64,000 bases of DNA from a virus (IMGVR_UViG_3300009431_000002:96001-160000), one strand, 5' to 3'. Positions 34,230 to 54,208 are shown, counted from the first letter of the stretch. Program-made: numbers and translations. The notes: generated by a model not told the origin, from the letters alone.

Positions 34230-35059
34230 GCGGCGAGGTCACCACGGCCCGCATCGCCCGGCTACTGCACGCCCGCCACGAGCCGCCGGAATGGGCGTGC
34301 TTCCAGGAGTTCACGACGATGACGGGCGGCGGGTTCCGCCGGTCTGGCGGCTACAGGACCGTGCGGTTCGTCGACTTCCTCGCCGTGAACCTCTGGCCCT
34401 CGAAGGGGATCTCCAAGTCGCCCAGGGTCGTCGCCTACGAGATCAAGGTCAGCCGCTCCGACTTCTTCCGGGAGATCCAGGACCCCAGCAAGCGGGCCCA
34501 GGCCATGGCGATGTCCAGCGAGTTCGTGTTCGCCGTCCCCAGTGGGCTGGTGAAGAAGGACGAGGTCCCCGAGGGCTGCGGGCTGCTCTACGCCACGACG
34601 GCCGGCCTGCGGCAGATGAAGGCGCCGCGGCAGAAGAAGCCGGACGACTGGGACTGGAACCTCATCTGCTCGCTGGCACGCCGCGTCGCCGACGAGCGTC
34701 CGAAGGACTCGCTGGCCGCCTGGAGGGTGGCGGGCCGCGAGCTGACCTACGAGGAGCTCGTGCAGCTGGCCATCAGCTCGTACAAGCGTGACGTCGGCGA
34801 GACCGCGGAGGCCATCGCCAACGGCGCCACCAAGAAGCTGATCGCCTCCAAGCCCTACCAGGACCTGCTCGACATCGCCGCGGCCGTGAAGGAGAAGTGT
34901 GGCTGGCGCGTGCAGACGGGCGACCAGTTCCGCCGGTGGTTCGATGAGCAGCTGCAGGGCGCGGTAGACCGCGACACGATCAGTGGAATCCGGCAAGCGC
35001 GGAGCACGCTGGATCGAGTGCTGGAGCGAGTCGCGCCAGCTCCGAAGCAAACCCGCTGA
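34226..35059 (+). CDS. MmcB-like PD-(D/E)xK nuclease/DNA repair protein
   Basis: VDFLAV...AYEIKVSRSDF...FVFAVPSGLVKKDEVPEGCGLL pattern; GTGA coupling. Confidence 0.7.
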   Translation: MSGEVTTARIARLLHARHEPPEWACFQEFTTMTGGGFRRSGGYRTVRFVDFLAVNLWPSKGISKSPRVVAYEIKVSRSDFFREIQDPSKRAQAMAMSSEFVFAVPSGLVKKDEVPEGCGLLYATTAGLRQMKAPRQKKPDDWDWNLICSLARRVADERPKDSLAAWRVAGRELTYEELVQLAISSYKRDVGETAEAIANGATKKLIASKPYQDLLDIAAAVKEKCGWRVQTGDQFRRWFDEQLQGAVDRDTISGIRQARSTLDRVLERVAPAPKQTR

Positions 35060-36230
35060 CGGCCCCCTCCTTCTCCAGCAGGGTCTTGTAGCCGCGGGGC
35101 TGCATGCCTGCGTCGAGCGCCTTCTTGAACCTGCGGACGTGCTTGCAGTCGCTGCCCTTGTGCGACCGCTTGTAGTACCAGTCCGGGCACGTGCATCCGA
35201 CTCGACCCGAGGACATGAGCTTCAGGGTGTACCGCTTGGGTCCGACATCGGACTTGACCCGGCGGACGTGCTCGGCGCCCTGCATGCCCTCCATGGCCCG
35301 CACGTGCCTTTTTAGCTTCGAGTCGGCCTCGGGGTGCAGGAGGATGGCCTGGCGGAACCCCGGGGACCGCAGGGCGCGGCCCTTGTACTTCTTCCACGCG
35401 TCCTGCGTGGGCGCGGGATCCGTGACGAGCCTGTCGGCCTGCTGCAAGTGCTTGGGCTTCGGGATGGTCGGCGGCAGCGGGCCCTGCCGGGCCTCCTTGA
35501 CCGCCGACGTCTTCTCCGCCACGAACCGCAGATTCTGCGACCCGGGCGTCGGCACCCTGTGGTACCCGACCTTCCCGGTGGCCGGACTGTAGATCGCGTG
35601 CCACTCCCCTGCGCCGCCCGGCATCCTCGCCCCGTGGATGTCCACGCTGCTGGGCCACACCTCCGGGGACACGAGCCCGCGCACCACATCCCGCGCGCGG
35701 CGAGCGTGCCGAAGGTTGCCTGGGGTGGGCCGGTCGAGATCGACGCCAGCAGCGGCCATCAGCTCCTCGAACTCTGGGCTGAACGGCTCTGGTCGGAGTT
35801 CCTGCGCAAGGTCACGCTCGATCATGGCGGGGTCTGGCGGGTCGCCGGGGTGGCTGTGGGCCGTCGGGCGCGAGGGTCCCGTGCGGTTCGCGGAGACGGG
35901 CCGCAACGCCACCGTCCCACCATCGCCGTGGACTAGATGGCGCGAACGCCCGCGCACGCCCACCTCGCCTACCTCATCCGCGCTCGCAGCCGCCAGATCC
36001 TTCATCCTGGCGGTCGGCGCGGCAGTCGATGGGTGGTCGATCTTCCCCTTCCTGAGCATCTTGGCCAGCCAGCGCCAGTCGCCCTCGCCCACCGAAACAC
36101 CGGCCGCACGTGCCGTCCGCGCGAGGTCCTCCGTGCGCGCTGACGTCTTGGCCAACTCGACGAAGTTGGCGCCCAAAATCGACCCCAGGCTATGGGCGAT
36201 TTCTGGGCGGCTGGTCAGATCTGATTTCAT
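34980..36230 (-). CDS. SWIM zinc-finger protein with N-terminal tag
   Basis: GCTCPDW...DCKHV (CxC-xn-CxH); N-terminal ANFVELAKTSA; TGATG coupling to the Snf2 gene. Confidence 0.75.
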   Translation of the reverse strand: MKSDLTSRPEIAHSLGSILGANFVELAKTSARTEDLARTARAAGVSVGEGDWRWLAKMLRKGKIDHPSTAAPTARMKDLAAASADEVGEVGVRGRSRHLVHGDGGTVALRPVSANRTGPSRPTAHSHPGDPPDPAMIERDLAQELRPEPFSPEFEELMAAAGVDLDRPTPGNLRHARRARDVVRGLVSPEVWPSSVDIHGARMPGGAGEWHAIYSPATGKVGYHRVPTPGSQNLRFVAEKTSAVKEARQGPLPPTIPKPKHLQQADRLVTDPAPTQDAWKKYKGRALRSPGFRQAILLHPEADSKLKRHVRAMEGMQGAEHVRRVKSDVGPKRYTLKLMSSGRVGCTCPDWYYKRSHKGSDCKHVRRFKKALDAGMQPRGYKTLLEKEGAVSGFASELARLAPALDPACSALAGFH

Positions 36231-39073
36231 CAATGGCTCGGGATGTAGTGCTCGGTCTTCTGGACCTTCTCCTCGGTCACGGACAGCCCACGCAGCATGG
36301 CACGGAGCTGCTCGTCACCGAGTCGCGCCCGCTTGCGCGCGTGGGTCTTGGGCGTCGTGAAGTACGGGTCGCGCAGGCCCAGCAGCATCTCTGGCGTGAG
36401 CATCAACGCAGCGAGCCCTGTGCCGGCGGCGACGGCGCCCCCGATGCCCACCGCGGCCTGGGTGACCGAGCGGGACCGGGGCAGTAGGTCTTCGGCGAGC
36501 CCGATGCCCAGTGGAGCGAAGGCAGGGGCGCCAGACAGGCCGACCAGCGGCGTGGCGATGCCCAGGACCTTGGCCGTGTTCACCAGCCTGTCCTTGTCGG
36601 TCTTCATCCCCTTGGGCGCCGGCGTTCCGCGCGCGGCCGCGCGGTAGTACTGGCGCAGGGTGTCGATGAAGTACTGCTCGCGCGCCTGCTTCTTCTCGTT
36701 GCCCACGGCCTCGACGTACGGGTCGGCCATGTCCTCGATCTTGTCGCCGAACTCGTTCCAGTACGCCTCCATGATGGGCTGGTCGGACTTGACGAGGCTG
36801 CGGCCCTCCTGGAAGGGGATGCGCTTGGCTGCGGCCCGCAGCTTCTTCTTGTCCACCTTGGCCGCGGAGATCTTCTCCATCTCGTCGTCGAAGGCGGCCT
36901 GCATCACGGCGAGCTTGAGCAGGGAGTCCTCGGCGAGCTCACCGACGGCGTAGTCGAACTCGGACTCCACGCTGGCGGCCTTGGACTTGCCCTTCAACTG
37001 GTGGCGGAACGACTCGTTGAGCACGTCCTTGCGCTTGGCGACGTCGTACATCCACTCGTCGGGCGAGGTCTCCCGCTTGAACGGGTTGTACATGATCGGC
37101 GCGCCGGCGGTGGTCAGGCGGTCGAGGAAGCCTCCAGGGGAGATGAGCTTCAGCGTGTCCTTGGCGGTCTGCGTGGCCGAGCGGGGCACGACGCTGACGT
37201 ACCGGCGGATGACGACCTTGCGCTGCTCCGGCTCCCGGTGCGCGAGCCCGCCGGCGCGGACCGCGCGGGCCTCGGCCTGCTGGATCTTCTCGGGGTTGAA
37301 GTGGCCGTCGAGCGCCGCGAACATCGTGGCGTTCTTGAGGTCCAGCCCCTCGCCGCCGGCGGCAGAGATGACGAGGACCTTGTTCTTGCCCTTGTTGAAG
37401 TCGCGCACAGACCGTTGGCGCTTCTCCTCGGTCACCCCGGGCTGGCCCTTGCCCACGAAGGTGCCGAAGGGGATGCCGCGGTCCTTCAGCCCCGCGGACA
37501 CGACGTCGACCCCACCCTTGATCAAGTTCGAGTGGATGACGACCTGGCCGTCTTCGGTCTCGGCGAGGTGGTCCTCGACGTCGTCCAGCATCACCTTGAC
37601 CTTCGGCGTCTTCTGCGCCGACTCGGTGATGTCCATGTCGTTGTCGATGGTGTGGATCGAGTTCGAGACCTGCCGGGCCTGGATGATCTTGGCGAAGATG
37701 TTGTTGAGGTCCCGGCTCTTGAGCTGGCTGGCACCGAAGCGCAGCTTGATGGCCGTGACGGGGTCGAGCTTGTCCACCACGTAGCGGTAGAGCTCCTCCT
37801 GTCGCGGGCTCATCATCACCTTGACCTCTTCGACGACCTTGTCGGGCATGCGCTCGTCGTCCATGTCCTTGGTCTCGAAGTGGTCGACGAACGGGTTGAG
37901 CAGGGCGCGCACCATCCGCGGCCGCGCGATGGTCTTCTGCCCCTTCTTGTCCTCGCGGACGAAGCGTCGCTCGAAGTGGTTCTTGGTGCCCAGGCGGTGC
38001 TTGCCGCCGGTCATGGCGTCGACCAGCGGGACCATGTCGCCCGGGGTGTTGTTCATGATCGACCCAGTCAGGCCGATGAAGTTCTTGTGGTGCGGGCGCG
38101 CGTCCTTCAACGTCTTGTAGGTCGCGCCCTCCTCGTTGCGGATCCGGTGGAGCTCGTCGTAGATGACGGTGTCCGCGCCCGAGGCCTTGATGTACTTCTC
38201 CGGGTCCTTGCGGAACATCTCGTAGCTGACGACGTGGTAGCGGGCACCGTCGTCGGGGTCCTCGGCGGCCCTGGCAACGCCCTTGGCTACCTCCTGGCTG
38301 TTGCCGAAGATCGCACCGCGGGCGTTGGTGAACTTGCGGACCCCGTTGTCCAGGAAGTTGGCGCGCAGCGACGCCGGCGTCACGACCAGCGCGCGGCTGG
38401 CGTCCCCGGAGTCTCGCATCTTCTCGAACGAGGCGATGGCGGTGATGGTCTTGCCGGACCCCGTGCCGTGGGACAGGAGCAGGGAGCCACCGCGGTTCAT
38501 CACCTTGTCGACCGCAGCCCTCTGGTGCTCGAACAGCTCGACGTTGCGCTTCAGTCCCTTGGGCTCGAACCTCTGTTCCTTCTTGCGCTTCGCCACCTTC
38601 ACCGAGCTAGCCTTGGCCATGCCCGGCGCCGCCTCTCCCATCGTCTCCGCGGACCGCCCGACGACCCGGCCCAGGTGCTCCGGCAGCTTCCGCAGCTTGC
38701 CCTTCAGCAGCTGCTCCGCCTCCACCGAGCTGGGTGAGGGTGCGAGGCCGAGGAGCTTCGACGCGAGCATGTCTCCCTTGAGGGCACCGAGTCCCGCGAC
38801 CTCCGCTGTGCCAGGCACGGGCAGGGCTGCTGCTGCACCCATCGCCGCGGGGATGGTGGCGATGTTGTCGGTAGCGGCGCCGACCAGGACTCGCTGGGTC
38901 TCAGGGTTGAGCAGGTGGAATCGAGAGGTCCCCGGAACCTCCGTCAGCAGCACGCGCTGGAGAGCGTCGGACGCGCCGCCCGCAGCCTGCTCCACCGCCT
39001 GCCCGACGCGCGGCAGCCCGACGCGGCGGAGGAGTTCGCCTGTGATCTGCCCACGTGCCGCCGCCTTCTCCAT
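36230..39073 (-). CDS. SWI2/SNF2-family ATPase, 947 aa
   Basis: HGTGSGKT, VVTPASL, VSYE, YDELHR, LTGSIMNN, AGGEGLDL, QAEARAVRAG; flanked by K-x-A motifs and AAFDDEMEKIS. Confidence 0.9.
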   Translation of the reverse strand: MEKAAARGQITGELLRRVGLPRVGQAVEQAAGGASDALQRVLLTEVPGTSRFHLLNPETQRVLVGAATDNIATIPAAMGAAAALPVPGTAEVAGLGALKGDMLASKLLGLAPSPSSVEAEQLLKGKLRKLPEHLGRVVGRSAETMGEAAPGMAKASSVKVAKRKKEQRFEPKGLKRNVELFEHQRAAVDKVMNRGGSLLLSHGTGSGKTITAIASFEKMRDSGDASRALVVTPASLRANFLDNGVRKFTNARGAIFGNSQEVAKGVARAAEDPDDGARYHVVSYEMFRKDPEKYIKASGADTVIYDELHRIRNEEGATYKTLKDARPHHKNFIGLTGSIMNNTPGDMVPLVDAMTGGKHRLGTKNHFERRFVREDKKGQKTIARPRMVRALLNPFVDHFETKDMDDERMPDKVVEEVKVMMSPRQEELYRYVVDKLDPVTAIKLRFGASQLKSRDLNNIFAKIIQARQVSNSIHTIDNDMDITESAQKTPKVKVMLDDVEDHLAETEDGQVVIHSNLIKGGVDVVSAGLKDRGIPFGTFVGKGQPGVTEEKRQRSVRDFNKGKNKVLVISAAGGEGLDLKNATMFAALDGHFNPEKIQQAEARAVRAGGLAHREPEQRKVVIRRYVSVVPRSATQTAKDTLKLISPGGFLDRLTTAGAPIMYNPFKRETSPDEWMYDVAKRKDVLNESFRHQLKGKSKAASVESEFDYAVGELAEDSLLKLAVMQAAFDDEMEKISAAKVDKKKLRAAAKRIPFQEGRSLVKSDQPIMEAYWNEFGDKIEDMADPYVEAVGNEKKQAREQYFIDTLRQYYRAAARGTPAPKGMKTDKDRLVNTAKVLGIATPLVGLSGAPAFAPLGIGLAEDLLPRSRSVTQAAVGIGGAVAAGTGLAALMLTPEMLLGLRDPYFTTPKTHARKRARLGDEQLRAMLRGLSVTEEKVQKTEHYIPSH

Positions 39074-39074
39074 G

Positions 39075-40052
39075 TCAGTGCCCTTCCTGCCGGCTCACCG
39101 ATGGGTACAGGCCGCCGGTCTTGATGAGTCCCTCGGAGATCCGCTTGCCCCGCACGTCGCGGCGACGCAGCAGTCGTCGGAAGTCGTCGAACGACATCGT
39201 CGTCATCGACCCGAAGAACTTGGGGCTGTTGTAGTGCTTGAGGTACGCCCGCTTCGCCTCCTTGGCATTGCGGAACCCCAGCATGCACTTGTCCTCGTCG
39301 TACTCCTTGAAGCCGGGCTTCTTCATCTGGTGGACGATGTACACCACGTCGGAGTGGAGGTCTGGCCCGACGTACACGTCGACGGGGTCGCCGTCGGGGG
39401 CCATGGTCCGTCGGACCTCACCGTAGTGGTGCTGCATCTTCGTGCTGCCGGACTCGCCGGTGTTCTCGTCCTTCCAGTGCCGGCTGGAGCCGCGGCGGTT
39501 CTCGATGTAGATCTTCAACCCACGGAAGTCGATGGTCCCCTGGTAGGGCCACTCCTTCCTGTTCCGCTTCGGCGGCGGGCCCACCTTGGGCTTGACCTCC
39601 TTGGGGTCAGCGCCGTTGGCCTTGGCCACCTTCTCCAGCGCCGCGATGATGGCGAGCCCACTGGCCTTGTAGAAGTTGCCCTCGTTCACACCGACCGTCT
39701 CACTGTTCCGCGCGTCCTCCAAGCCCTTCAGCCCGTCCTTCGTCAGCTCGGGGCCGCCCTTGACCTTCAGGAACTCGTGCCCGTCGCCGTCGACACTGGT
39801 CTTGTAGGCGCGGCTGGCGCCGATCTGGCTGTTGTGCTCGACCGCTCGGAGCAGCCGGACCATCTTGGCGACGGTCTCCGGGTGGCCCTCGAGCTCCAGC
39901 TTCACCGAGGCGCGCGGCTGCTCACCGACCTTCTCCGGCAGCTTCTCGTCCGGTGTGTGCCTCTCCCACTTCTTGACGGTGCCCTTGGGCACACGACCAT
40001 CCGCCTCCATGGCGTGGAAGAGTCGTCGCTGTGCCTCGCTCTGGAATGGCAT
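39075..40052 (-). CDS. Protein with N-terminal MPFxSxAQ module and C-terminal inorganic pyrophosphatase-like (InPase) domain
   Basis: GLKIYIENRRGSSR...MQHHYGEVRRT.APDGDPVDVYVGP...VYIVHQ...YDEDKCMLGF...AKRAY matches the phage/polyvalent-protein InPase pattern. Confidence 0.75.
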   Translation of the reverse strand: MPFQSEAQRRLFHAMEADGRVPKGTVKKWERHTPDEKLPEKVGEQPRASVKLELEGHPETVAKMVRLLRAVEHNSQIGASRAYKTSVDGDGHEFLKVKGGPELTKDGLKGLEDARNSETVGVNEGNFYKASGLAIIAALEKVAKANGADPKEVKPKVGPPPKRNRKEWPYQGTIDFRGLKIYIENRRGSSRHWKDENTGESGSTKMQHHYGEVRRTMAPDGDPVDVYVGPDLHSDVVYIVHQMKKPGFKEYDEDKCMLGFRNAKEAKRAYLKHYNSPKFFGSMTTMSFDDFRRLLRRRDVRGKRISEGLIKTGGLYPSVSRQEGH

Positions 40053-40055
40053 CGT

Positions 40056-40865
40056 CTACCCCAGGTTCGGGCCGAACACCTTCCGCGGCCAGCTGCCCGT
40101 GCCTGTGGTGGGCAGCGGGGCCTGCGAGAACATGTTGAACGCCTTCATGGCAGCCGGCAGCGCGACCAGTGCGCCGCCGACCCGCCCCCACTTCGGCAGC
40201 CTGCTGGCGAGCTGGGCTGCCTCGTCCGCGGTCATCAGCCCCTTCTCCACCGACTTCTGCAGGGTGCCGGCGAGCATCTTCCCGCCACCGTGGCCGAGCA
40301 TCGACGCACCGCCGACGGTGCCCGCCATCCCAGCCAGCCCCCACGTCGGTCCGGCGGGGACCACCTGCACAGGCTGCTGGTACTGCATCGGGTAGGCCGC
40401 GGTCTTCTCGCCCGTGTAGTTGCGCAGCTTCTCGGACATCTCCGCGACGTGTGCTCGCTCCTCTTCCTCAGACATGCCGTGCGTGATGTAGATGCTGCCG
40501 ATCCCGCCGTCGCCCCGCCGCACAGACAGGATCTTCTTGTAGGGGGAGTAGTGGTCGCGGGTGCCTCCGGCACCGAGGGTCCGCCGCAGCGCGTTGATCA
40601 TCCCCGGCAGCTTCTCCGTATGCACCGGCTTCTTGACGTAGACGCCACCAGGCTCGAACGCGGAGTCTGGAATGGCCTTGCCCGTCCGCTCCTCCTCAGC
40701 CATCACGGCCTCGACAGCATCGAGGTCGTCCCACAATCCCTGACTGTCGGGAACATGCGTATTGAGGAGCTTGTACCCTTCCGGGGTCAGCGACCTCGGG
40801 TCGACGCGCTTCGGGCCGAACGCGGTCTTCACCAATCCGAAGGGCACGATGGGTCGCTCGGTCAT
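40056..40865 (-). CDS. Tagged glycine-zipper protein, 269 aa
   Basis: LVKTAF and EKTAA motifs; hydrophobic C-terminal segments; no Cys seen. Confidence 0.65.
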   Translation of the reverse strand: MTERPIVPFGLVKTAFGPKRVDPRSLTPEGYKLLNTHVPDSQGLWDDLDAVEAVMAEEERTGKAIPDSAFEPGGVYVKKPVHTEKLPGMINALRRTLGAGGTRDHYSPYKKILSVRRGDGGIGSIYITHGMSEEEERAHVAEMSEKLRNYTGEKTAAYPMQYQQPVQVVPAGPTWGLAGMAGTVGGASMLGHGGGKMLAGTLQKSVEKGLMTADEAAQLASRLPKWGRVGGALVALPAAMKAFNMFSQAPLPTTGTGSWPRKVFGPNLG

Positions 40866-41284
40866 GCTGCTGCTCCTCGGAGCCTGTGCGCCAGGCGCTC
40901 ACCGAACTCGGCGGTGAGCATCTCCAGCGCCTGGCCCTTGCGCTTGCCGTAGCCGGCGAGCTTCACGCCCCAGCTGTCGACCTCAGCGGTGTAGGTCCCG
41001 ACCGCCGCCTCGCTGGACCCGAGGATCTCGTCGAAGGTGGTGCCGATGGCCTCGCGCATCGCGGACTCCGGCGGCCACGGGAACGGGTCCACGCGGTAGA
41101 TGTGGTAGAGCAGGTCGTCGCCGGCGAACACCCACTGGATCCGGATGGGGCCGAAGTCCACCATCGGTGTGCGGTCGTGGGTACCCACGGCCTCCATCTT
41201 GAAGGACCGCTGGCCCCCGGCAATCTGGCCGAGCATCTCCTGCGCCCAGTCAGGCGTCCTCGTCAATGTCTTCGGACCCGTCAT
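40862..41284 (-). CDS. Hypothetical protein, about 140 aa
   Basis: ATG at 41284 after GGAGAGG; ATGA coupling to the next gene. Confidence 0.6.
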   Translation of the reverse strand: MTGPKTLTRTPDWAQEMLGQIAGGQRSFKMEAVGTHDRTPMVDFGPIRIQWVFAGDDLLYHIYRVDPFPWPPESAMREAIGTTFDEILGSSEAAVGTYTAEVDSWGVKLAGYGKRKGQALEMLTAEFGERLAHRLRGAAA

Positions 41285-44335: not shown

Positions 44336-44339
44336 TGGT

Positions 44340-45431: not shown

Positions 45432-45438
45432 GTCCTAC

Positions 45439-45861
45439 TCAACGACGGAGCAGCGTCGCGCCCCCGAGGCCCAACGTGCCGAGACCAGCCATGCCTCCGG
45501 CGCCGGCCAGCGCACCGCCGCCGACGTCACGGGCGAGGTCGCCGCCCTCCTGGACCTGCTTGCCCCAGCCCTCGAGGCCCTCGCCCCAGCCGCGGCGTGT
45601 CTTGCCGGCGTCCAGGGCCTCCGTGCTCATCTTGCCCTTGGGCTGGGCCTTCACGGCGCGGGCCATGGCGTCGTCGCCCGACTGGGTGAGCTTGCCGCCC
45701 AGCCACTTGGCGCCGCGGCCGATGAGCTTGCCGGCCTGCTCGATGAGCGCGAGCTTCTCGAGGTCGCTCAGGCCACGGGCGTCTGCCACCTTCTCGAGCT
45801 CGTCGAGGAACCCGCCGACGAAGGCGTGCTCGCATGCGGCCGCGTGCTTCTCCATATCCAT
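45439..45861 (-). CDS. Tagged small membrane-anchored protein, 140 aa
   Basis: MEKHAA...GGFLDELEKVA...LEKLA; C-terminal GGGALAGAGGMAGLGTLGLGGATLL. Confidence 0.7.
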   Translation of the reverse strand: MDMEKHAAACEHAFVGGFLDELEKVADARGLSDLEKLALIEQAGKLIGRGAKWLGGKLTQSGDDAMARAVKAQPKGKMSTEALDAGKTRRGWGEGLEGWGKQVQEGGDLARDVGGGALAGAGGMAGLGTLGLGGATLLRR

Positions 45862-45870
45862 GCGGTCCTC

Positions 45871-46656
45871 CTATCCAAAGTGGCGCGGCGTTGGCGCGTC
45901 GAGCCACAGATATTTGCTTTCGTGCGCTGACAGCCGAGGCTTGAGCCACCGCATGGCTTCCTGAGGCCCGCGGCTCTGCAACTGCTCCCGGTACGCGTCC
46001 TGTATCTGACTGTACTCTAAATCTCGTCGGTCGACCGACCGCTCCAGCAACGCCCGAAACCGACGTCGCATAGCCTTCGGCATCTTCTGCCCAGGACGGC
46101 CAACGAACCCACCTGCGCGGGCGTCCCCGAACGCCTCGGACGCCTGCCTGGACAGACGCCTGTACTCCGGTTCGCGCAGCCTACGCCACAATCCAGCCGT
46201 CTCCCAGCCACCGCCCGGGCCCTCTAAGGTGTTAATGAGATTGGACTCCTGGACCAGCACATCTGGCTCTGCGTGACCAGAGACCAGTTCCGTGAGCTTC
46301 TCGCCGTAACGGCCAGCTTTCCGCTCCGCAGCCTCGTGTATGGTGGCGATCCCACGAAGGTTGGTTTGTGCCTCCCTGGAGGCGTGTGGGGCAATACCGC
46401 GACCCGCGGATGGCGCCACGTAGACGGCACCTGCAGCCCGAGCCAGGGCCGGGGACTGATCCTTTATGGCCTCCGGCAAACGCTTCGGTATGTGGAACGC
46501 GCCAGCGCGCATCGGTGTGGTGCCGAGCTCCTCCCAGGCTTTCGCTGGTAGCCTACGCAGTGGGGCGATGCGCTCGGTAGCCACGCGAAGATCTGCAGCT
46601 GACACCGCGATCTTCACAAGCTCGTCGCAAAACGCCGCCAGTCGCCTCCGCTCCAT
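45871..46656 (-). CDS. Tagged hypothetical protein with HExxE motif, 261 aa
   Basis: LAAFCDELVKIA at the N-terminus; TIHEAAE...SGH...QE; A/T-richer codons than flanks. Confidence 0.6.
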   Translation of the reverse strand: MERRRLAAFCDELVKIAVSAADLRVATERIAPLRRLPAKAWEELGTTPMRAGAFHIPKRLPEAIKDQSPALARAAGAVYVAPSAGRGIAPHASREAQTNLRGIATIHEAAERKAGRYGEKLTELVSGHAEPDVLVQESNLINTLEGPGGGWETAGLWRRLREPEYRRLSRQASEAFGDARAGGFVGRPGQKMPKAMRRRFRALLERSVDRRDLEYSQIQDAYREQLQSRGPQEAMRWLKPRLSAHESKYLWLDAPTPRHFG

Positions 46657-46664
46657 GCGATCTC

Positions 46665-49600
46665 CTAGTACCCGACGCGGAACTCCGTGGTGCCGGGTGT
46701 TCCTTTCTCAGGCTGCCCGAACTCGGAGCCATAGGCTAGCGCCGGGATCGGATGCAACCCGTGGATGTTGCTGGACCAGCCCCTCAAGGCACCGTCGACG
46801 ATGGTGTCCTTCAGCTTCTGGTACTGGAGCCGCGCCATCCAGTCCTCCTGCATGTCCAGCGGCGTCTGCGTGACCCCGCGCAGGATGGGCGTGAACTTGA
46901 CGGGCTTCTTGCGCTTCTTGTTGTGGTACCCGACATTCGACGTGGACACCAGGTCTCCTGGGAGGAGGTCGGTGTCGCCGGCGTCATCCACTACGCCGAG
47001 GTCGGTGATGGCGCGGACCGCGGTCTCCACGTTGCGCCGGAGCACTGGGCCCGCGTCCGAGTACGCCTTGTGGACCTCGTCCGCGAGGTAGCCGCGCACC
47101 GTGTTGATGTTGGTCAGCGGCAGCATCTCGTGCGGATTGATGGGCCCGCCGGAGAGCCGGTCCCCCTTGCGGACCTTCACGCCCTTGCGCAGCTTGATCT
47201 TCTCGTTGACCAGGTGCTCGGGGACGTAGTGCCTCTTCCCCTTGACCCAGATGTTGAGGCCGCCGACCTCGGCGTCCTTCTCCACCCGCTCTACGGTGCC
47301 CGTGGTCGTCGCCAGCGTCGCCGAGTCCGCCAGCACCTTGGGCATGCGCAGCAGGTCCTGGACCCTGGTGAACTTGTCGGTGGACCGGCCGCTCTTCGAG
47401 GCAGCGACCCCGCCTTCGTGGAACGCGCGCATCGACAACTGCGTGGCGGGCTCGCCCAGTGCCTGCGACGCGATGACCCCGATGTTGGTCCCCGGGTCGG
47501 GCAGCTGGCCGTCCGGCAGGTTGCCGTAGTCCCGTGCGTACAGTCCCTTCGGGGCCACCGACTTCAGCGGGCTGCGGATCGACACGCGCCGGACGCCGCT
47601 GTTCTTCATCCTCGTCTGGACCCGGTCGGTGACCTCGGTGTTCCTCGGCAGGACGTCGCCGCCCCGGAGCTTCACGGGCCGCGCGAGGTAGCGACCGATG
47701 ACCTCGCGGTCCTCGGGGTCCGCGCTGATGCCGTCGTCGGCGTCGTCCGGCGCGTCCCCATCGACCACGACGAGGTTCATGGCAGAGTTCACGACGTCCT
47801 TGGTCAGCGCGCCGGGCTTGGCGGTCTCCTTCGTCTTCTGGATCATGCCCTTGCGCGCACCGTGCATGGCCGTGAAGTAGCTGGCGGAGTCCAGGCCCTC
47901 GGCGTAGCTCTTGGTGATCGGCACCGGCACGATGCGGTCGGCCGCGTCCTTCACCAACATGGGGGCGATGAGGATCTGCCGGACCTGGTCCCAGTTGCCG
48001 CGAGCACCGGCGTTGACCATCTCCAGGGCGTGGTTGCCCTGCCGCTCCAACTTCGGACGGATGGCCCGGCTCAGGTCCTCGGTGGCCTTGGAGTAGAGGT
48101 CGACGAGGCGCTGGTCCTTCTCCTCCTGGGTCAGCGACTTCATCTTCTGGATGCGCTTGGCCGCCTTGTGGACCCCAGCCAGGGCGCGGTCGCGCACAGC
48201 CTGCTGCGCCTGGAAGTCGTCGAGGGTGAACGACGCGCCAGACTCGTAGGCGTAGTCGTTGCCCATGTCCTTGAGGTCGTTGACGACGTCGCCGAAGTCG
48301 GCCGAGTGCTCCTTGGCCATCCGGGTGAGGAGGTCCTTGGTCGGGCCCTTGGACATCCGGAAGTCCTTGGAGTGGAGCAGCTGCGCGTCCCCTCGCATCC
48401 CCTCCGGCAGCACGCGGTCGAGGAGGATGCGACCGAGGGTCGTCTCCCTGCCCTTCACCGAGACCACGTCGGTCATGCCGAGGCCGAGCTTGCGGGCCTT
48501 GGCCGCCACCTGCGCCGGCGAGTCGAAGCGGTGCGACGTCTTCTTCCCCCACTCTGTCAGCCGGTACAGCCCGAGCTGGGCCTCGTGGCCCGGGGAGTAC
48601 ATCACCCGGCCGGTGGTGGTGTTGAACAGGTTGTTGGACGGGAAGAGCTTGCGCGCCTCCTCCACCGCCTCCTTGGCGAGCGGAACGTAGGCGGACATCT
48701 GGTCGCCGTCGAAGTCGGCGTTGTACCCCGAGGTCACCAGGGGGTGGATGCGGATGGCCTTGCCGCCGACGAGCTTGGGCTTGAACGCCATGACCCCGAA
48801 CTTGTGGAGCACCGGGTCACGCTTCAGCAGCACCGGCCGCTCCTCCATCACGCGCTCAAGCGCGTGCCGGGCGACCTTGGAGTTGGTCCGGACCAGGTGC
48901 TGTGCCTCGGCGGGGACGTAGCCCTGCTCCCGCACCAGCTTTCGCACGACGAAGGGCTTGTACGTCTCCTTCGCCAGCTTGTAGGGGATGCCCACCTCGT
49001 CCAGTCCCATGTCGGGCTCGGGGATGATGGTGGACCGCATCGACAGGTCCTGCCGGCGGGAGACGAGGTTCTTCTGGAAGAACGAGTCCTTGGGCTGGGG
49101 CACGCCCTTCATCGTCTCCATCACGCCGCGGTGCTTGCGGCCGTTGATGGTGGAGCCGGTCATCATCAGGGCGCGGAGCCCGTCGTAGAGCTCGGCGGTC
49201 AGCTTGCTCTTCGTCTTCTCCCCGAGTCCGGGGTCGTAGTCCCGCAGCTGGATGTTGGTGATGCCGAGGCTCTTGTACAGGCCGTTGATGTCCGAGTCGT
49301 TGAGCTTGCCCGACTCCATCACCGAGACCGGCCGCATCACCGGCGGCATGACGGGCACGACCGAGGTGAAGTACGCCTGGTCGGGGGTCAGGTCGTTGGC
49401 GACCAGCGCCTCGAGGAACCGGATCTGCTTGCGCAGCTTCGCCATCGTCGACACGGCCTTGGTGGTCTCGGCCTGGCGACGGAGCGTCTCCAGCTGCTGC
49501 CGTGGGTCGATGGCCGCCAGCCGTGCGCGGATGGCTTCGGGCCCGGTCTTCCCGTCGAGCGTCTTCTCGCCGGCGATGACGGCCTGGTAGTCCTTGTTCT

Positions 49601-52600
49601 TCAGCCCCGTGAAGGTGAGGATGGCCTTCTCGAACACCGGGTTCGGCATGGGCTCGGCCAGCCGGATGTGGGACCAGCGCTTGCCGTCCACACCGCCCGT
49701 GGCGTAGGGGTCGAACAGCCCGCCGCGCTCCGGCTTGAGGTCCTTGCCCCGGAACATCAGGCCCGGGTCCTTCAGTTCGCCGCTGGACATCCGCAGGATC
49801 TGCTCGTCGGTGAGGGGCGCGAGGTTCAGGGTCGAGCCCTGCTTCTTGACGTCGACGCCCAGCACGTTGAGGTAGCCGTTGAACTTGTCGAAGGCGAACG
49901 AGGTGGACGGCGGTGGGAGCTGCTCCCCAGTCTGCAGGGCCATCCACAGCTCGGGGTTCTTCTGGCTCTTGTAGGTGGCCATCTCCCGGATGTTGGCCTT
50001 CGCTCCATGAGCCAACATGGCGTACATGCCCAACGCGTCCATGGCCTGGGCGCCGTGGGCACCACCGCCCTTCGGAACCTCGTTGACGCTGTACGCGTAC
50101 CCGGCCCCGCCCGCGCGGGCGTGGGACTTCTTGTCGATCTGGTGCTTGAGCTTGAGGATGTACTGGTCGCCCGTGAGGATCGGCCCCAGGCTCTGCCCGG
50201 ACTTGGGGTCCACCAGCTCCTCGGTGTCGGACAGGCCCTCCTTCGCCAGCTCCGCCTTCATCTCCTTGGCGTAGTTGCGGTTGGCCCCGCCGAAGTTGTT
50301 GGTGACGTACCGCTTGCCCCGCTTCCGGGCGATCTTCCCGGCCATCGTCTCGAGGACCTGGCCGAGGTTGATGCGGCCGGGGATGCCAGCCGGGTTGAGC
50401 AGGACCTCGACCGGGGCGCCCTCTTCGCCAGAGGCGCGCGGCATCTCGTGGTCAGGCAGCACCGCCGTGACGATGCCCTTGTTGCCGTGGCGTCCGACCA
50501 GCTTGTCCCCGACGCGGGCAGGCTCCTCGGTGGCGACGTGGACGCTGACGTCCTTGCCCCGCTTGACGACGCGGACCACCCGGCCCTTCGTGTCCTTGTC
50601 CCAGACGATGGGCTTGGGGTCCATGTCCCGCACGAGGCTCTTGTGCAGCCGCGCCCGCATGCGACGCTCGCTGGTCTGCTCCGGCTTCTTCAGCGCGGCG
50701 ACGAGGATGTCCCCCTCGTTGACCTCCTGCCCCACCTGGATGACGCCGTCGTCGTCGAGCTTGTCGTAGACCTCGCGCTGCACGCGGTCGGGTGGCGCGT
50801 ACGCGCGGAACTTCTTCTTGTCCAGGACCGTGTTCTTGGTCAGCCGCATGCTCTTGCGGTGCATGTGCTGGGACTTGAGCTTCTCGGCCGCGGACTCGGA
50901 GACGACGATGCCGTCCTCGAAGTTGTACCCACGGTACGGGATGTAGGCCACCCGGAGGTTCTTGCCCAGCGCGAGCTTGCCTTCGCGCGTGAAGTTGGTG
51001 TCGGCCACCGTCTGGCCGCGCTTGACCTTGTCCCCCTTCTTCACGAGGGGCTCGGAGTGCAGGACGCTGGACGCCTCGTTGAGCGGGAAGTGGTCGTAGA
51101 GCTGGACCTCCTCCAGCTTCCCGGCCTTGCTCCGGATCTTGATGGCGCCGGGCCTCACCGACACCACGGTGCCTTCCACCGGGGACTCGTGGGAGTTGAA
51201 CTGGCCCAGCACGTCCTCGAAGGTGGACCTCACCTCGGTCTTGGACTGCACCAGCGGCTCGTCGCGGTCCACCAGGGGCACGGCCTGCTCCTGCTGCCGG
51301 GACGCCGTCATGGCCCTGTTGCCCTGGTTGTTCTGCAGGAAGGGCACGAGGTTGGTGGCCATGCTGAACAGGCCCTTGGCCGACGGGAGGATGTAGTCCA
51401 CCTCGCTGGCCGGCACCTGCATCACCTCGCCGCCCGGGCCGCTGACCGTCACCTCCTTACCGATGGGGACGAGCCGGTTCTTCACCTTCTTGTACTGGTC
51501 TGGGAAGGCGACGGTGGAGCGGTGCGCCTTGTGCGGATCGATCTTCTCCCGGCGGCCCGTCTTCGTGTTGTAGGCCTGGATGTAGAGGGTCTTGCCCTTC
51601 CGCGACACCCCCAGCGGGAGCTGGAGGGTGATGCCGGTGCGGTCACCCTCCGGGGTGTGGATGGGGTCGAGGAAGCCGAGGTGCGTCGGGTCGATGAGCT
51701 GGTCGGCGTCGGTCAGGGTGTGGGTGCTCTTGACCCCGCCCTCGCCCATGATGGTGGTCTTGGACTGGCCGGAGATGAACTCCAGCGGGTTGACCTGGTC
51801 GGGCATCTGCGACAGCTGGGTCTGGGTGAAGAAGGTCTTGATGGGCTTGTCGAACAGCCCGGGGGTCACGACCTCCCTGACGTCGGCCTTGCGGTCGATG
51901 TTGTTCTCCATCTTCCGCTGCAGATCCCAACGGCCGCGGGTCAGCCGCTCGGCCACGAAGTCGTCGACCGACAACGCGTCCTTGTAGAACAGGTGCTCAC
52001 GCGCGTCCGGGGTGTCCTCGCCCCTCGAGATCCGCGCGAGCTTGTGGGCCGAGGCCAGGAGCGACGGGCCGCTCACCTTGTCGTAGGCCTTGCCCAGGGT
52101 GATCTTCGTGCTGTCGGGGCGCAGCACGGTCGTGCCGAACTCATCTCGGAGGTGGCGCTCGGCGTCCTCGATGCTGGGTGCCTGCTTGCCCGTCGACGCC
52201 TTGTAGAAGGCGCGCATGGCGACGTCGTGCTTCTCCTTCTTCCCCTGGTTGAGGATCCCGCGGCCCAGCTCGCGCTCGATGGTGTCGTCGTCGACCCCCA
52301 GCACCTTGAGCATCGGGTAGAGCGGGATGTGGGAGTTGCCGTACCGGACCAGGAACCGCCGGTCCTCCGGGTGGAACCGGAGCCGGAAGTTCTTGCCTTT
52401 CGCCATGTTCCACTGGGACTCCAGCTCACCCTTGGCGCTGACGCGGTGGTACACCCCAGCCTTCAACCGGAACTGGTTGTCGACCTGGTACTCCTTGCCG
52501 TCGACGATGTAGGAGTGCCGCTTGGTCACGCGGGGCAGGTTGCCCACGCGCATGGACTTGCGGCTGATGACCTTGCCCGTCTCCTTGTTGACCAGGGAGA

Positions 52601-52811
52601 CGTCGGCCATAACAGGGTCAGCCCAAGTCCTGCCCTTGAGCTTCGCGTCCTGCTGGGACCGGATGTCGTCGATGCCCTTCTTGTCGTCGACCCAGACCCG
52701 GTGGAGCTCCAGCCGGTTCTCTCGCCCCTCGAAGGGGAACATCGACGAGATGGCGTCGCTGACACGGTCTTTGAGGGCACCGTAGGAACCCTCTGGGTTC
52801 AGTGTCGCCAT
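46665..52811 (-). CDS. rpoBC: Single-chain fused beta-beta' multisubunit-type RNA polymerase, 2048 aa
   Basis: Beta motifs GDKLVGRHGNKG, LNPAGIPGRINLGQVLE, ILKLKH; beta' motifs KPERGGLF, PVMPPVMRP, LLKRDPVLH, YNADFDGDQM (catalytic), HGARKG (bridge helix), SQALGEPATQLSMRAFH (trigger loop). Confidence 0.97.
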   Translation of the reverse strand: MATLNPEGSYGALKDRVSDAISSMFPFEGRENRLELHRVWVDDKKGIDDIRSQQDAKLKGRTWADPVMADVSLVNKETGKVISRKSMRVGNLPRVTKRHSYIVDGKEYQVDNQFRLKAGVYHRVSAKGELESQWNMAKGKNFRLRFHPEDRRFLVRYGNSHIPLYPMLKVLGVDDDTIERELGRGILNQGKKEKHDVAMRAFYKASTGKQAPSIEDAERHLRDEFGTTVLRPDSTKITLGKAYDKVSGPSLLASAHKLARISRGEDTPDAREHLFYKDALSVDDFVAERLTRGRWDLQRKMENNIDRKADVREVVTPGLFDKPIKTFFTQTQLSQMPDQVNPLEFISGQSKTTIMGEGGVKSTHTLTDADQLIDPTHLGFLDPIHTPEGDRTGITLQLPLGVSRKGKTLYIQAYNTKTGRREKIDPHKAHRSTVAFPDQYKKVKNRLVPIGKEVTVSGPGGEVMQVPASEVDYILPSAKGLFSMATNLVPFLQNNQGNRAMTASRQQEQAVPLVDRDEPLVQSKTEVRSTFEDVLGQFNSHESPVEGTVVSVRPGAIKIRSKAGKLEEVQLYDHFPLNEASSVLHSEPLVKKGDKVKRGQTVADTNFTREGKLALGKNLRVAYIPYRGYNFEDGIVVSESAAEKLKSQHMHRKSMRLTKNTVLDKKKFRAYAPPDRVQREVYDKLDDDGVIQVGQEVNEGDILVAALKKPEQTSERRMRARLHKSLVRDMDPKPIVWDKDTKGRVVRVVKRGKDVSVHVATEEPARVGDKLVGRHGNKGIVTAVLPDHEMPRASGEEGAPVEVLLNPAGIPGRINLGQVLETMAGKIARKRGKRYVTNNFGGANRNYAKEMKAELAKEGLSDTEELVDPKSGQSLGPILTGDQYILKLKHQIDKKSHARAGGAGYAYSVNEVPKGGGAHGAQAMDALGMYAMLAHGAKANIREMATYKSQKNPELWMALQTGEQLPPPSTSFAFDKFNGYLNVLGVDVKKQGSTLNLAPLTDEQILRMSSGELKDPGLMFRGKDLKPERGGLFDPYATGGVDGKRWSHIRLAEPMPNPVFEKAILTFTGLKNKDYQAVIAGEKTLDGKTGPEAIRARLAAIDPRQQLETLRRQAETTKAVSTMAKLRKQIRFLEALVANDLTPDQAYFTSVVPVMPPVMRPVSVMESGKLNDSDINGLYKSLGITNIQLRDYDPGLGEKTKSKLTAELYDGLRALMMTGSTINGRKHRGVMETMKGVPQPKDSFFQKNLVSRRQDLSMRSTIIPEPDMGLDEVGIPYKLAKETYKPFVVRKLVREQGYVPAEAQHLVRTNSKVARHALERVMEERPVLLKRDPVLHKFGVMAFKPKLVGGKAIRIHPLVTSGYNADFDGDQMSAYVPLAKEAVEEARKLFPSNNLFNTTTGRVMYSPGHEAQLGLYRLTEWGKKTSHRFDSPAQVAAKARKLGLGMTDVVSVKGRETTLGRILLDRVLPEGMRGDAQLLHSKDFRMSKGPTKDLLTRMAKEHSADFGDVVNDLKDMGNDYAYESGASFTLDDFQAQQAVRDRALAGVHKAAKRIQKMKSLTQEEKDQRLVDLYSKATEDLSRAIRPKLERQGNHALEMVNAGARGNWDQVRQILIAPMLVKDAADRIVPVPITKSYAEGLDSASYFTAMHGARKGMIQKTKETAKPGALTKDVVNSAMNLVVVDGDAPDDADDGISADPEDREVIGRYLARPVKLRGGDVLPRNTEVTDRVQTRMKNSGVRRVSIRSPLKSVAPKGLYARDYGNLPDGQLPDPGTNIGVIASQALGEPATQLSMRAFHEGGVAASKSGRSTDKFTRVQDLLRMPKVLADSATLATTTGTVERVEKDAEVGGLNIWVKGKRHYVPEHLVNEKIKLRKGVKVRKGDRLSGGPINPHEMLPLTNINTVRGYLADEVHKAYSDAGPVLRRNVETAVRAITDLGVVDDAGDTDLLPGDLVSTSNVGYHNKKRKKPVKFTPILRGVTQTPLDMQEDWMARLQYQKLKDTIVDGALRGWSSNIHGLHPIPALAYGSEFGQPEKGTPGTTEFRVGY

Positions 52812-52900: not shown

Positions 52901-53107
52901 ATGATTGAAATCGTACCCACCGAAGACCACACCCTCGACGATCTGGACGACGAGCCCATCGTGCTCGCCGGCCCGGGCGATGACGAGGATGACAACGATG
53001 ACGAAGAGGAGGACAATGAGGAGGAGGTCGACGAGGACCGGGAGGACCGGACGAGTCCAGAGATCCTCGACGACGCCGTCGATGAGGCGATCTACGGCGA
53101 GGAGTAG
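52901..53107 (+). CDS. Small highly acidic protein, 68 aa
   Basis: Strong RBS; D/E tract DDEDDNDDEEEDNEEEVDED. Confidence 0.7.
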   Translation: MIEIVPTEDHTLDDLDDEPIVLAGPGDDEDDNDDEEEDNEEEVDEDREDRTSPEILDDAVDEAIYGEE

Positions 53108-53109
53108 CC

Positions 53110-54202: not shown

Positions 54203-54208
54203 GACGCC

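Follow-up and report, generated by a model that had tools for sequence, protein, structure and literature searches.

A single-chain RNA polymerase–spike operon with putative polyvalent-like cargo in an uncultured Arash-like phage

The DNA analyzed here, a stretch of 64,000 nucleotides referred to below as the window, comes from an uncultured phage of ~202 kb in the Arash-like lineage, whose members are tailed and have RNA polymerases (RNAPs) of bacterial type. Positions 34980-52811 are best explained as one 11-gene operon within the virion-gene region of this phage. Its conserved core is best explained as the single-chain RNAP, small tagged glycine-rich proteins, a spike, and proteins of 714 and 314 amino acids (aa), and its 3' half (InPase, Snf2, SWIM, and two small proteins) as a lineage-specific, swappable module. 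We lean, with slightly better than even confidence, towards an overall explanation in which a conserved RNAP-spike core carries swappable polyvalent-like cargo and the RNAP is packaged and ejected together with a sigma factor. The helper-enzyme "kit" around the RNAP is not conserved, and the RNAP is not self-sufficient.

The operon and its conserved core

The operon lies on the minus strand and is tightly coupled, with the order fused beta-beta' RNAP, two small N-terminally tagged proteins, spike, 714-aa protein, 314-aa protein, two small proteins, InPase, Snf2, and SWIM. Junctions from RNAP to SWIM range from -4 to +9 nt, except for a possible overlap of ~35 nt at the gene at 40862-41284, whose start is uncertain. 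The RNAP, Snf2, SWIM, and InPase genes named in the initial annotation are all present on the minus strand. The operon does sit between the terminase and portal genes, as had been proposed, but the three are separate units with plus-strand gene clusters between them. The portal protein (665 aa; 54242..56239, minus strand), assigned from weak PHROG portal matches and synteny, is 30% identical to Arash gp204 (E 3e-79), and its gene is a member of the upstream unit, outside the RNAP operon. Small opposite-strand genes (52902..54228, plus strand), the first encoding a very acidic protein, separate the two units and end in a hairpin-TTTT terminator at 54209-54228. On the other side, the large terminase subunit (29817..31586, minus strand; phrog_675, 4e-55) forms its own unit, divergent from a plus-strand ParB-like cluster (~31580-34900). 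Because opposite-strand genes and a terminator cut the RNAP operon off from the portal, late timing does not follow from its location.

The RNAP (46665..52811, minus strand) is a fused beta-beta' bacterial-type enzyme of 2048 aa, identified by Pfam, NCBIfam, and PDB alignment, and the genome encodes no other RNAP. Pfam matches include Rpb2_6 (PF00562, 7e-64), which covers the beta catalytic double-psi barrel region (Rpb2 domain 6), as well as Rpb1_2 (2e-29) and Rpb1_5 (3e-24). The beta part ends at about aa 985 and the beta' N-terminus begins directly after it, at about aa 998. The beta' Mg-binding motif NADFDGD is present, as YNADFDGDQMS, in the alignment to PDB beta' chains (E 5e-60). The enzyme contains no Cys among its 2048 residues (P ~1e-10 given the genome average of 1.12% Cys), and neither of the two beta' zinc sites, the N-terminal C4 domain and the second C4, is found in it: the region matching beta' 57-172, which holds the first zinc domain, is shortened to ~48 aa, and the second site is without its Cys ligands. 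The RNAPs of relatives retain the second zinc site only (C-x61-67-C-x6-C-x2-C); in 69 of 88 family RNAPs the four residues of one zinc site are the sole Cys, and the present lineage has none. The Snf2 ATPase likewise has no Cys (P ~3e-5 against the same average), and its homologues carry 0 or 1, so the earlier remark that the two largest enzymes lack Cys was accurate. Such scarcity fits proteins that survive outside the cell or are threaded through a tail.

An alpha subunit gene, already reported as missing from the window, was not found anywhere in the 202-kb genome by matches to PF01000 or PF01193, and the RNAP may use host alpha. The reported lack of a sigma gene is correct for the window, but a 240-aa ORF of the sigma-70 type (L084:1051-1773, minus strand; Sigma70_r3, 39.7 bits, cut-off 25.3) sits at the record end, outside the 64,000 nt. 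Its orthologue in Arash is gp10 (E 2e-29), a protein detected in virions, and a sigma gene was found in five of seven complete relatives. It is a putative partner of the phage RNAP. Since this sigma-70-type gene lies elsewhere in the genome, the first proposal, a self-sufficient early-transcription machine, is not supported.

The 363-aa product of 44340..45431 (minus strand) is assigned as a cell-puncturing central spike of the gpV, R2-pyocin spike, or VgrG type. Although its structural model has a pLDDT of only 62, the top 24 Foldseek matches are all spikes (4s37, E 5e-5, prob 1.0), among them the R2 pyocin, PVC/AFP/eCIS spikes, VgrG, phi92 gp138, and P2 gpV (prob 1.0, E 5e-5 to 5e-3); the matches suggest an N-terminal OB-fold followed by a beta-helical spike. 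Pfam matches to Phage_base_V and DUF2345 are weak and below cut-off. Downstream lies a 714-aa protein (g714; 42191..44335, minus strand), identified by synteny as always following the spike and with no fold match. The next protein (314 aa; 41250..42194, minus strand) has an acidic C-terminus and tblastn matches in 22 loci, and its gene overlaps the preceding one by ATGA; that it is the small terminase is only a guess. Two further small genes on the minus strand complete this stretch, one for a protein of ~124-140 aa (40862..41284) kept only in the three nearest relatives, the other for a 269-aa protein with glycine-rich hydrophobic stretches (40056..40865) that has no homologue among the fetched loci.

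Conservation sets this core apart. Among sub-clade loci whose RNAP is at least 40% identical, the spike and 714-aa genes lie directly downstream of the RNAP in 25 of 25 and the portal is found no more than 6 kb upstream in 15 of 17. Arash and Vibrio phage D181 have their portal and RNAP genes in this order as well, and portal adjacency persists over an identity range of 27-67%. The RNAP gene does stand in a virion-gene context, as the initial annotation held, in a tight operon with the spike and with conserved synteny, yet as a unit separate from portal and terminase. Spike coupling could also mean that the RNAP is delivered in a tail-tip or tail-lumen complex instead of the capsid, which we consider very improbable. 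A folded enzyme of 230 kDa is too big for a tail tube, no tail protein is fused to the RNAP, and adjacency to the portal is equally conserved in distant relatives. The invariant spike gene after the RNAP speaks for such a complex, as does the precedent of a tail-borne, tape-measure-fused virion RNAP in Thermus phage P23-45 (PMC10770324).

Tagged proteins and the variable module

Two of the core proteins begin with a variant of the motif F-x-D-E-L-x-K-I-A. One is a 140-aa protein (45439..45861, minus strand; tag GGFLDELEKVA) with a glycine-rich hydrophobic C-terminus, equivalents of which sit just downstream of the RNAP in relatives. The other is a 261-aa protein (45871..46656, minus strand; tag AAFCDELVKIA), preceded by the ribosome-binding site TAGGAG 5 nt before its ATG and without a family match. 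Several tagged proteins had been described in 34980-52811; these two carry the tag at the N-terminus and Snf2 has one internal tag-like site (~aa 726), but there are no others in the interval. Across the genome there are 9-10 copies (9 N-terminal, 1 internal); every one is on the coding strand, the reversed sequence used as a control has 0, and some tagged genes are situated among tail genes. Related motifs occur in relatives on small proteins right after the RNAP. The capsid-targeting sequence (CTS) of T4 internal proteins and gpAlt is comparable as a short N-terminal amphipathic peptide common to unrelated small proteins, and the motif is likewise an N-terminal peptide shared by unrelated proteins, but the two have no sequence homology. 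The motif also has a hydrophobic-x-Glu pattern resembling the site of the T4 prohead protease. By analogy, the motif is probably a CTS-like incorporation signal, a protease-cleavage signal, or both; the product of g571 gives a weak head-protease match (phrog_18299, 2e-4).

The 3' half of the operon presents a different picture. The InPase protein (325 aa; 39075..40052, minus strand) has a conserved N-terminal MPFQSEAQRRLF motif and, at aa 171-294, an InPase domain of the polyvalent-protein type (PF18823, 1e-35; 122.9 bits, cut-off 26.8) that has an intact acidic active site and the PPase signature DGDPVDV. The Snf2 ATPase (947 aa; 36230..39073, minus strand; SNF2-rel_dom 9e-20, Helicase_C 1e-12) retains intact motifs GTGSGKT (Walker A), DELH (DExH), and QAEARAVRAG (motif VI). 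It has lineage-specific extensions at both ends (1-165 and 700-947), the C-terminal one holding the tag-like AAFDDEMEKISA and a hydrophobic segment at 873-898. The SWIM protein (417 aa; 34980..36233, minus strand), whose start overlaps the Snf2 stop (ATGA), has a C-terminal CxCx13CxH finger, CTCPDWYYKRSHKGSDCKH, at aa 347-365; its Pfam match is below threshold (E 0.31), but the CxCx13CxH motif is exact and is conserved in the nearest relative. With the best PDB match of Snf2 to 1z63 (E 1.5e-15; RapA, E 3e-6), the pairing of its core with a SWIM CxCxnCxH finger matches the SWIM-associated SsoRad54-like type.

Gene-neighborhood comparison does not uphold the accessory set as a unit: co-location with the RNAP is not conserved for InPase and SWIM and is only patchy for Snf2. 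Of 22 relatives, 3 have the InPase; Snf2 is present in 5 of 19 and, among complete genomes, in 2 of 7. At the same position the nearest relative (G003; L091:3783-9587) encodes one 1934-aa polyvalent protein combining InPase, LigD_N (a LigD-type 3'-phosphoesterase), and SWIM, with no Snf2; the C-terminal part of our 417-aa SWIM protein is 57% identical to its end. In the window these effector domains do not share one giant polypeptide, InPase, Snf2, and SWIM being three genes, and no MuF/portal-binding domain was detected. The best reading of the module is variable, polyvalent-like cargo on a conserved RNAP-spike core, the counterpart of a phage polyvalent protein split into individual genes.

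We give a serious chance, somewhat short of even, to the view that InPase, Snf2, and SWIM are counter-defense cargo unrelated to transcription, a disaggregated DarB-type polyvalent protein in a variable slot before the terminase that protects or processes incoming DNA or destroys nucleotide signals. The 1934-aa protein without Snf2 in that slot of G003 agrees with this, as do the different genomic position of InPase in other relatives, which encode it within ORFs of 494-1239 aa, the PHROG matches of the InPase protein to minor head, virion, and DarB-like antirestriction proteins, the greater similarity of Snf2 to SsoRad54 than to RapA, and the polyvalent-protein concept itself (Iyer et al. 2017, PMC5512222). 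However, five independent arrangements place a Snf2 orthologue beside the RNAP gene or even within it (at most 8 kb away at loci L022, L024, L027, and L031 and in Arash), and D181 has a PF00176-positive helicase, a candidate orthologue, ~4-5 kb upstream of its portal. An analogous Snf2-RNAP linkage exists in phiKZ-like phages (PMC7824862), and removal of PPi would directly favor transcription; according to Iyer et al. (2017, PMC5512222), polyvalent-type InPases are predicted to be carried in virions and may clear PPi to the benefit of early transcription.

Evidence for and against virion delivery of the RNAP

That the enzyme travels in the virion is plausible, in part from data on cultured relatives. 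Mass spectrometry of Arash virions detected the RNAP protein gp206, with the most spectra of any protein, along with gp216, gp217, and sigma gp10 (PMC10585845); by our homology computation, gp217 is the Snf2 homologue adjoining the RNAP. Particles of YerA41 contain RNAP subunits and a sigma factor, although the early expression of its RNAP genes counts against packaging (PMC7354516). The Arash virion proteome comprises 116 of ~270 proteins (PMC10585845), and contamination is likely because the listing includes ribonucleotide reductases and a dNMP kinase. Further points against our favored explanation are that the RNAP has no F-x-D-E-L-x-K-I-A tag, as the initial annotation had conceded, that Arash has no such tags at all, and that the accessory genes are missing from most relatives.

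It is possible, but in our judgment unlikely, that the RNAP is a non-virion enzyme. Host RNAP would transcribe the operon early, and the phage RNAP and sigma would then transcribe middle and late genes, by analogy with T7 RNAP or the phiKZ non-virion RNAP; the position near portal and spike would be historical linkage, and the particle signal in Arash and YerA41 would come from an abundant DNA-bound enzyme carried over into the preparations. As the only RNAP, the enzyme has to transcribe middle and late genes too, and packaging therefore cannot be deduced solely from where its gene lies. The sole RNAP gene, the operon's own upstream region apart from the portal unit, the early class of the YerA41 genes, the many obviously non-structural enzymes in the Arash list, and the untagged RNAP all agree with this alternative. 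Hard for it to explain, unless regulation or assembly is shared, are the unbroken RNAP-spike coupling and the portal adjacency across 27-67% identity. Family-wide Cys loss in the RNAP also argues against it, as do the spectral counts of the Arash RNAP and adjacent helicase, which are among the highest and far above those of typical carry-over proteins.

Relation to other phages and proposed role

The initial annotation knew of no earlier description of such a set, but particles with RNAP, sigma, and helicase had been reported for YerA41 in 2020 (PMC7354516) and Arash in 2023 (PMC10585845), and the polyvalent-protein concept already covers InPase, Snf2, and SWIM cargo (PMC5512222). Arash and Vibrio phages D69, D148, and D181 have a homologous RNAP (~30-32% identity), portal, Snf2-type helicase, major capsid protein, terminase, and sigma, and Arash gp204-gp217 show the same portal-then-RNAP order. 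However, the Arash RNAP is two genes (gp206 and gp216) split by an inserted block and retains four zinc-site Cys, whereas ours is one uninterrupted chain with none; the tags, the InPase/SWIM module, and the spike directly after the RNAP are all present here and absent from Arash. The mReC lineage of Caudovirales with deep-branching beta and beta' RNAPs (Weinheimer & Aylward 2020, PMC7481178) is similar in comprising uncultured tailed phages, some >200 kb, from IMG/VR that encode beta and beta' homologues of cellular type, but that paper is silent on fusion, on linkage to portal or spike, and on sigma, helicase, and packaging, and no contig identifiers in its supplements matched the family of this phage.

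With the phiKZ-like, N4-like, crAss-like, and P23-45 phages this phage would share the idea of an RNAP that enters along with the genome and makes early transcription independent of the host, and phiKZ-like phages likewise link a Snf2-type helicase to RNAP genes (PMC7824862). Their enzymes differ from the bacterial-like fused one described here: those of phiKZ have 4-5 split subunits, no sigma, and virion and non-virion pairs, that of N4 is a T7-like single-subunit polymerase, and those of crAss and P23-45 are highly divergent. Unlike these virion-RNAP phages, the present phage has a putative sigma-70-type partner and no second RNAP. Polyvalent proteins (PMC5512222) share the PF18823 InPase, Snf2 ATPase, SWIM, and location among head genes with our module, in which the genes are instead separate, translationally coupled, and attached to the RNAP operon.

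A more far-reaching picture is one that we regard as a long shot. A large, widespread lineage of uncultured tailed phages would package a complete initiation machine of bacterial style, a Cys-purged single-chain beta-beta' RNAP with sigma; here it would be joined by a tag-addressed Snf2, anchored at the ejection channel by a removable hydrophobic tail and pulling or clearing DNA, while a co-ejected pyrophosphatase drives early transcription and loading depends on F-x-D-E-L-x-K-I-A as a new targeting and cleavage signal. In the explanation that we favor, a packaged RNAP on a conserved core with exchangeable cargo, the operon would be expressed together with structural genes. The RNAP, with sigma from the far end of the genome, would be taken up into the particle and leave it with the DNA upon ejection, and would then transcribe the first genes from sigma-70-like promoters. 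Where present, the Snf2 translocase would travel with the RNAP and assist it on DNA, in a RapA-like manner or by pulling DNA, and the InPase and SWIM proteins would be ejected accessory or counter-defense effectors, not obligatory transcription factors.

A conserved polymerase and spike unit beside the portal gene

The RNA polymerase (RNAP) gene of this phage (46665-52811, minus strand) encodes a fused beta-beta' protein of 2048 aa that contains every large-subunit RNAP domain in beta-then-beta' order. The protein matches the Pfam families Rpb2_6 (7e-64), Rpb2_3, Rpb1_1, Rpb1_2 (2e-29), Rpb1_4 and Rpb1_5 (3e-24), matches solved bacterial beta' chains with an E value of 1e-113, and carries YNADFDGDQMS. 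Beta homology ends at about residue 989 and the beta' N-terminus (…GELKDPGLMFRGKDLKPERGGLF…) starts at about residue 998, while the stretch equivalent to the bacterial first zinc domain is shortened from ~115 to ~48 residues. As the initial annotation had noted, the two largest enzymes of the region, RNAP and the Snf2 ATPase, have no cysteine at all, against a genome mean of 1.12% (P about 1e-10 for RNAP and 3e-5 for Snf2). No second RNAP of the bacterial type is present elsewhere in the genome (a 201,921-bp IMG/VR record, 100% complete by CheckV, with ~67% G+C, of which the window covers positions 96001-160000), and a search that had no positive control found no T7-like RNAP in it. The family to which the enzyme belongs comprises 295 IMG/VR loci. 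Its size in metagenomes is at least 578 protein clusters at 90% identity, nearly all of them single chains of ~2,050 aa, and inteins or homing endonucleases are common among these clusters. Many family RNAP genes (proteins P0003-P0117; loci L009, L022, L024, L027, L031, L043 and L002) contain inteins or homing endonucleases (PF14528, PF05204, PF14890) or are divided into two to three ORFs; the gene in the window is uninterrupted.

Third-position GC identifies the minus strand as the coding strand in this region. Eleven genes run from RNAP to SWIM, in the order RNAP, 261 aa, 140 aa, 363 aa, 714 aa, 314 aa, ~130 aa, 269 aa, InPase, Snf2 and SWIM, with junctions of -4 to +9 nt and Shine-Dalgarno sequences before most of them; the exception is a possible overlap of ~35 nt at a small gene (40862-41284) whose start is uncertain. 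The model of the 363-aa protein (pLDDT 62) has an OB-plus-beta-helix fold, and its 24 top matches in the PDB are without exception cell-puncturing spikes (E down to 5e-5, prob 1.0), including those of R2 pyocin, PVC/AFP/eCIS, VgrG, phi92 gp138 and P2 gpV. Sub-threshold Pfam matches to Phage_base_V and DUF2345 are consistent with this fold. Since the 363-aa protein is a spike by fold, a true structural gene lies within the translationally coupled array of RNAP. In loci with an RNAP identity of 40% or more, RNAP is directly followed by the spike and the 714-aa protein in 25 of 25, with the 314-aa protein and the terminase after them, and the portal lies no more than 6 kb upstream of RNAP in 15 of 17. 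We conclude that RNAP, the tagged small proteins and the spike, beside the portal, are the core unit, which is both conserved and the most interesting part of the region. The 714-aa protein gave no usable fold match in the PDB (Foldseek) or the ESM Atlas, a single uncharacterized homologue in BFVD, and only a C-terminal helical hairpin in a wide VIA-align search; neither Pfam nor PHROGs matched it or tag261 and tag140 (the small tagged genes after RNAP), g269, g190 or g314.

The initial annotation placed the gene set between the terminase and portal genes on the virion strand. Gene coordinates and strands agree, with the large terminase (29817-31586) on one flank and the portal (54242-56239) on the other, but the RNAP array is continuous with neither, as plus-strand genes intervene on either side. 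Between portal and RNAP lie an acidic protein gene (52902-53630, plus strand) preceded by the ribosome-binding site GAGGAGG, a conserved ORF (~53563-53928, plus strand) and a strong terminator (54209-54228, plus strand), and a plus-strand ParB-like cluster separates the SWIM gene from the terminase. Portal, RNAP array and terminase are thus three transcription units. The gene for this very acidic protein (MIEIVPTEDHTLDDLDDEP…DDEDDNDDEEEDNEEE…) is divergent from that of RNAP, only 90 nt from the RNAP start codon, behind a strong ribosome-binding site and within an AT-rich island, of which the genome has few, and its product may be a DNA mimic or an early regulator; plus-strand ORFs beyond it extend to 54187. 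At the other end, a ParB-like gene (31580-32674, plus strand; phrog_1033, 1.5e-16) is divergent from the large terminase, with overlapping predicted starts, and is kept in the nearest relative. A sigma-70 consensus scan upstream of RNAP yielded no RNAP-strand promoter within the region covered and a total number of sites not above that in shuffles, and no shared late-promoter motif could be defined from roughly extracted, noisy intergenic sequences. A near-consensus sigma-70-type promoter (TTGACA, 18-nt spacer, TATAAC; ~28025-28125) lies upstream of 27109-28020, before the head-gene unit, and a similar TTGACT-N18-TACGAT stands at ~59300, ahead of the unit whose last gene is the portal; nothing comparable was seen upstream of RNAP.

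The InPase, Snf2 and SWIM genes

The three accessory proteins named in the initial annotation are present as described. The Snf2 ATPase (36230-39073, minus strand; 947 aa) has all ATPase motifs, the InPase protein (39075-40052, minus strand) matches PF18823 at 1e-35 and keeps the DGDPVDV signature, and the SWIM protein (34980-36233, minus strand), although below the Pfam threshold, has a CxCx13CxH finger shared with its nearest homologue. The idea that they form a conserved, co-packaged accessory set is not supported: gene neighbourhoods do not keep the three together beside RNAP. Of 19 RNAP-bearing records, 5 have a Snf2 domain above the Pfam cut-off (among the complete ones, two of seven); InPase was found in 3 of 22 and is adjacent to RNAP only in the nearest relative. 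Snf2 orthologues are usually near RNAP: they occupy the same slot in L022 and L024, lie between portal and RNAP in L027 and within the split RNAP in L031, and directly follow beta' in Arash, a cultured Salmonella phage. These orthologues are 470-585 aa long with 0-1 Cys, and the protein in the window carries additional N- and C-terminal extensions. By sequence it is nearest to SsoRad54, of the SWIM-associated type, with a weaker match to RapA.

At the equivalent position of the nearest relative, a single 1934-aa protein (L091:3783-9587, plus strand) combines an N-terminal MPF(K/Q)SEAQRR motif with InPase, a RecX-like helical region, a 3'-phosphoesterase of the LigD type and the same SWIM finger, and has no Snf2. 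Only four cysteines occur in this protein, three of them in the SWIM finger. Its layout is the architecture of the polyvalent proteins, multi-domain phage cargo described by Iyer et al. 2017 (PMC5512222), and the window therefore represents a split polyvalent protein into which Snf2 has been inserted. The same authors predicted that this type of InPase is packaged in virions, where it may clear pyrophosphate for early transcription, and listed Snf2 and SWIM-associated Snf2 among polyvalent cargo (PMC5512222). The supposed transcription kit is a lineage-specific, polyvalent-protein-like cargo module in which a link to transcription is likely for Snf2 alone. This variable slot illustrates how polyvalent-protein domains shuffle between fused and split forms. 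The Arash "pyrophosphatase" gp23 was considered as an InPase homologue and rejected by tblastn; located in the nucleotide-metabolism cluster, it lends no support to InPase packaging.

A sigma factor gene and a shared N-terminal tag

The region had been described as a self-sufficient early-transcription machine with no alpha or sigma gene. The absence of alpha extends to the whole genome, in which neither PF01000 nor PF01193 was found. The absence of sigma holds within the window but not for the genome, since the record's extreme end contains a 240-aa ORF that scores above the Sigma70_r3 cut-off (Pfam), has features of regions 2 and 4 and matches models of group 1-3 sigma factors. This ORF is the orthologue of Arash gp10 (31% identity, E 2e-29) and is present in five of the seven complete relatives. 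Self-sufficiency is therefore not borne out, and the RNAP is most likely sigma-dependent. Complex prediction for the sigma-like protein and the clamp region of beta' (aa 1085-1420) gave 0.24, where the mark was 0.34. The ORF (G000:C1:201197-201919, minus strand, in whole-record coordinates) runs off the record end; on circular joining its place is just downstream of two further tagged proteins and one glycine-zipper protein (G000:C1:1-2500), so that the record, though classed as linear, was probably cut or permuted at the sigma gene. Pfam gave nothing for three large proteins nearby (927, 1121 and 544 aa). The 927-aa protein (G000:C1:6854-9637, minus strand), close to the sigma gene and the tagged genes, is a third large protein that lacks cysteine and might likewise be ejected.

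The tag F-x-D-E-L-x-K-(I/V/Q)-(A/G) has eight exact copies in the genome, all of them coding-strand and close to an N-terminus, and none in a reversed-sequence control. Two weaker copies accompany them. One is N-terminal (PAFVDELCKIKE; G000:C1:~13409, minus strand; 21 bits), the tenth in all, in an ORF outside the window and far from virion genes; the other is internal to Snf2 (about residue 726), at the start of the lineage-specific C-terminal extension that also carries the only clearly hydrophobic segment of the operon. In related phages, variants of the form (A/G)-F-x-(D/E)-E-(L/M/V)-x-K-I occur on small glycine-rich proteins exactly between RNAP and spike; none was found in Arash. The proposal of a shared address tag on the accessories holds for two small proteins, the only tagged ones inside the interval, and for the internal Snf2 site, but not for RNAP, InPase or SWIM, which are untagged; genes for other tagged proteins lie close to the sigma gene or are interspersed with those for head and tail. 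By analogy, the hydrophobic-acidic-Glu pattern at the N-terminus recalls the capsid-targeting and cleavage signal of T4, and a 570-aa head protein with a weak head-protease match is a candidate prohead protease that could process the tags. This protein (24729-26441, minus strand; phrog_18299, 2e-4, weak) is conserved with Arash gp222 and in Vibrio phage D181. The "membrane-zipper" description of the cargo had to be abandoned: the glycine-rich tails of tag140 and g269 fall below the Kyte-Doolittle threshold, and only Snf2 873-898 passes it. The shared tag is a possible usable cargo-loading signal.

Probable delivery of the polymerase in the virion

The RNAPs of the cultured relatives, Arash and the Vibrio phages D69, D148 and D181, are 30-32% identical to this one, and the portal-then-RNAP order is kept. 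Arash and this phage have in common the portal, terminase, major capsid protein, head protein, tail proteins, Snf2 helicase and sigma factor. Direct evidence on packaging comes from relatives. In virion mass spectrometry of Arash, no protein yielded more spectra than RNAP gp206 (3516); the counts were 1210 for gp216 and 1148 for the neighbouring helicase gp217, and sigma gp10 was covered at 100% (PMC10585845). The authors raise both injection and carry-over, and ribonucleotide reductases and kinases are among the 116 proteins that they list (PMC10585845). In YerA41, RNAP subunits, along with a sigma factor, were found in particles, and the RNAP genes are early (PMC7354516). With carry-over raised for Arash and early RNAP genes in YerA41, the RNAP studied here might be an ordinary enzyme with no place in the virion, a reading that we find doubtful given the cysteine content of the family. 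Among 88 intein-free family RNAPs, 69 have exactly four cysteines, all at the second beta' zinc site, and 13 have five; only the closest kin of this phage have none. Selection against free cysteines, in a cytoplasmic-type enzyme of ~2,000 residues and in its Snf2 partner, would fit a life outside cells or unfolding and refolding at ejection, an indirect argument for packaging. On balance, we lean slightly towards delivery of the RNAP in the virion.

Several elements of this picture have been published, namely tailed phages with bacterial-type RNAPs (PMC7481178), RNAP, sigma factor and helicase associated with particles (PMC7354516, PMC10585845) and injected cargo of several enzymes (PMC5512222). 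None of the IMG taxon identifiers of related contigs matched in the supplements of the paper on the mReC lineage (Weinheimer & Aylward 2020). The cultured members, Arash and the Vibrio D-phages, make the prediction directly testable. Should RNAP and sigma really be packaged, this enzyme would be the first polymerase delivered in a virion to be both near the bacterial enzyme and sigma-dependent. A packaged single chain devoid of zinc and cysteine would also be an attractive minimal model for bacterial-type transcription, and a model for how a 230-kDa enzyme traverses a phage tail.
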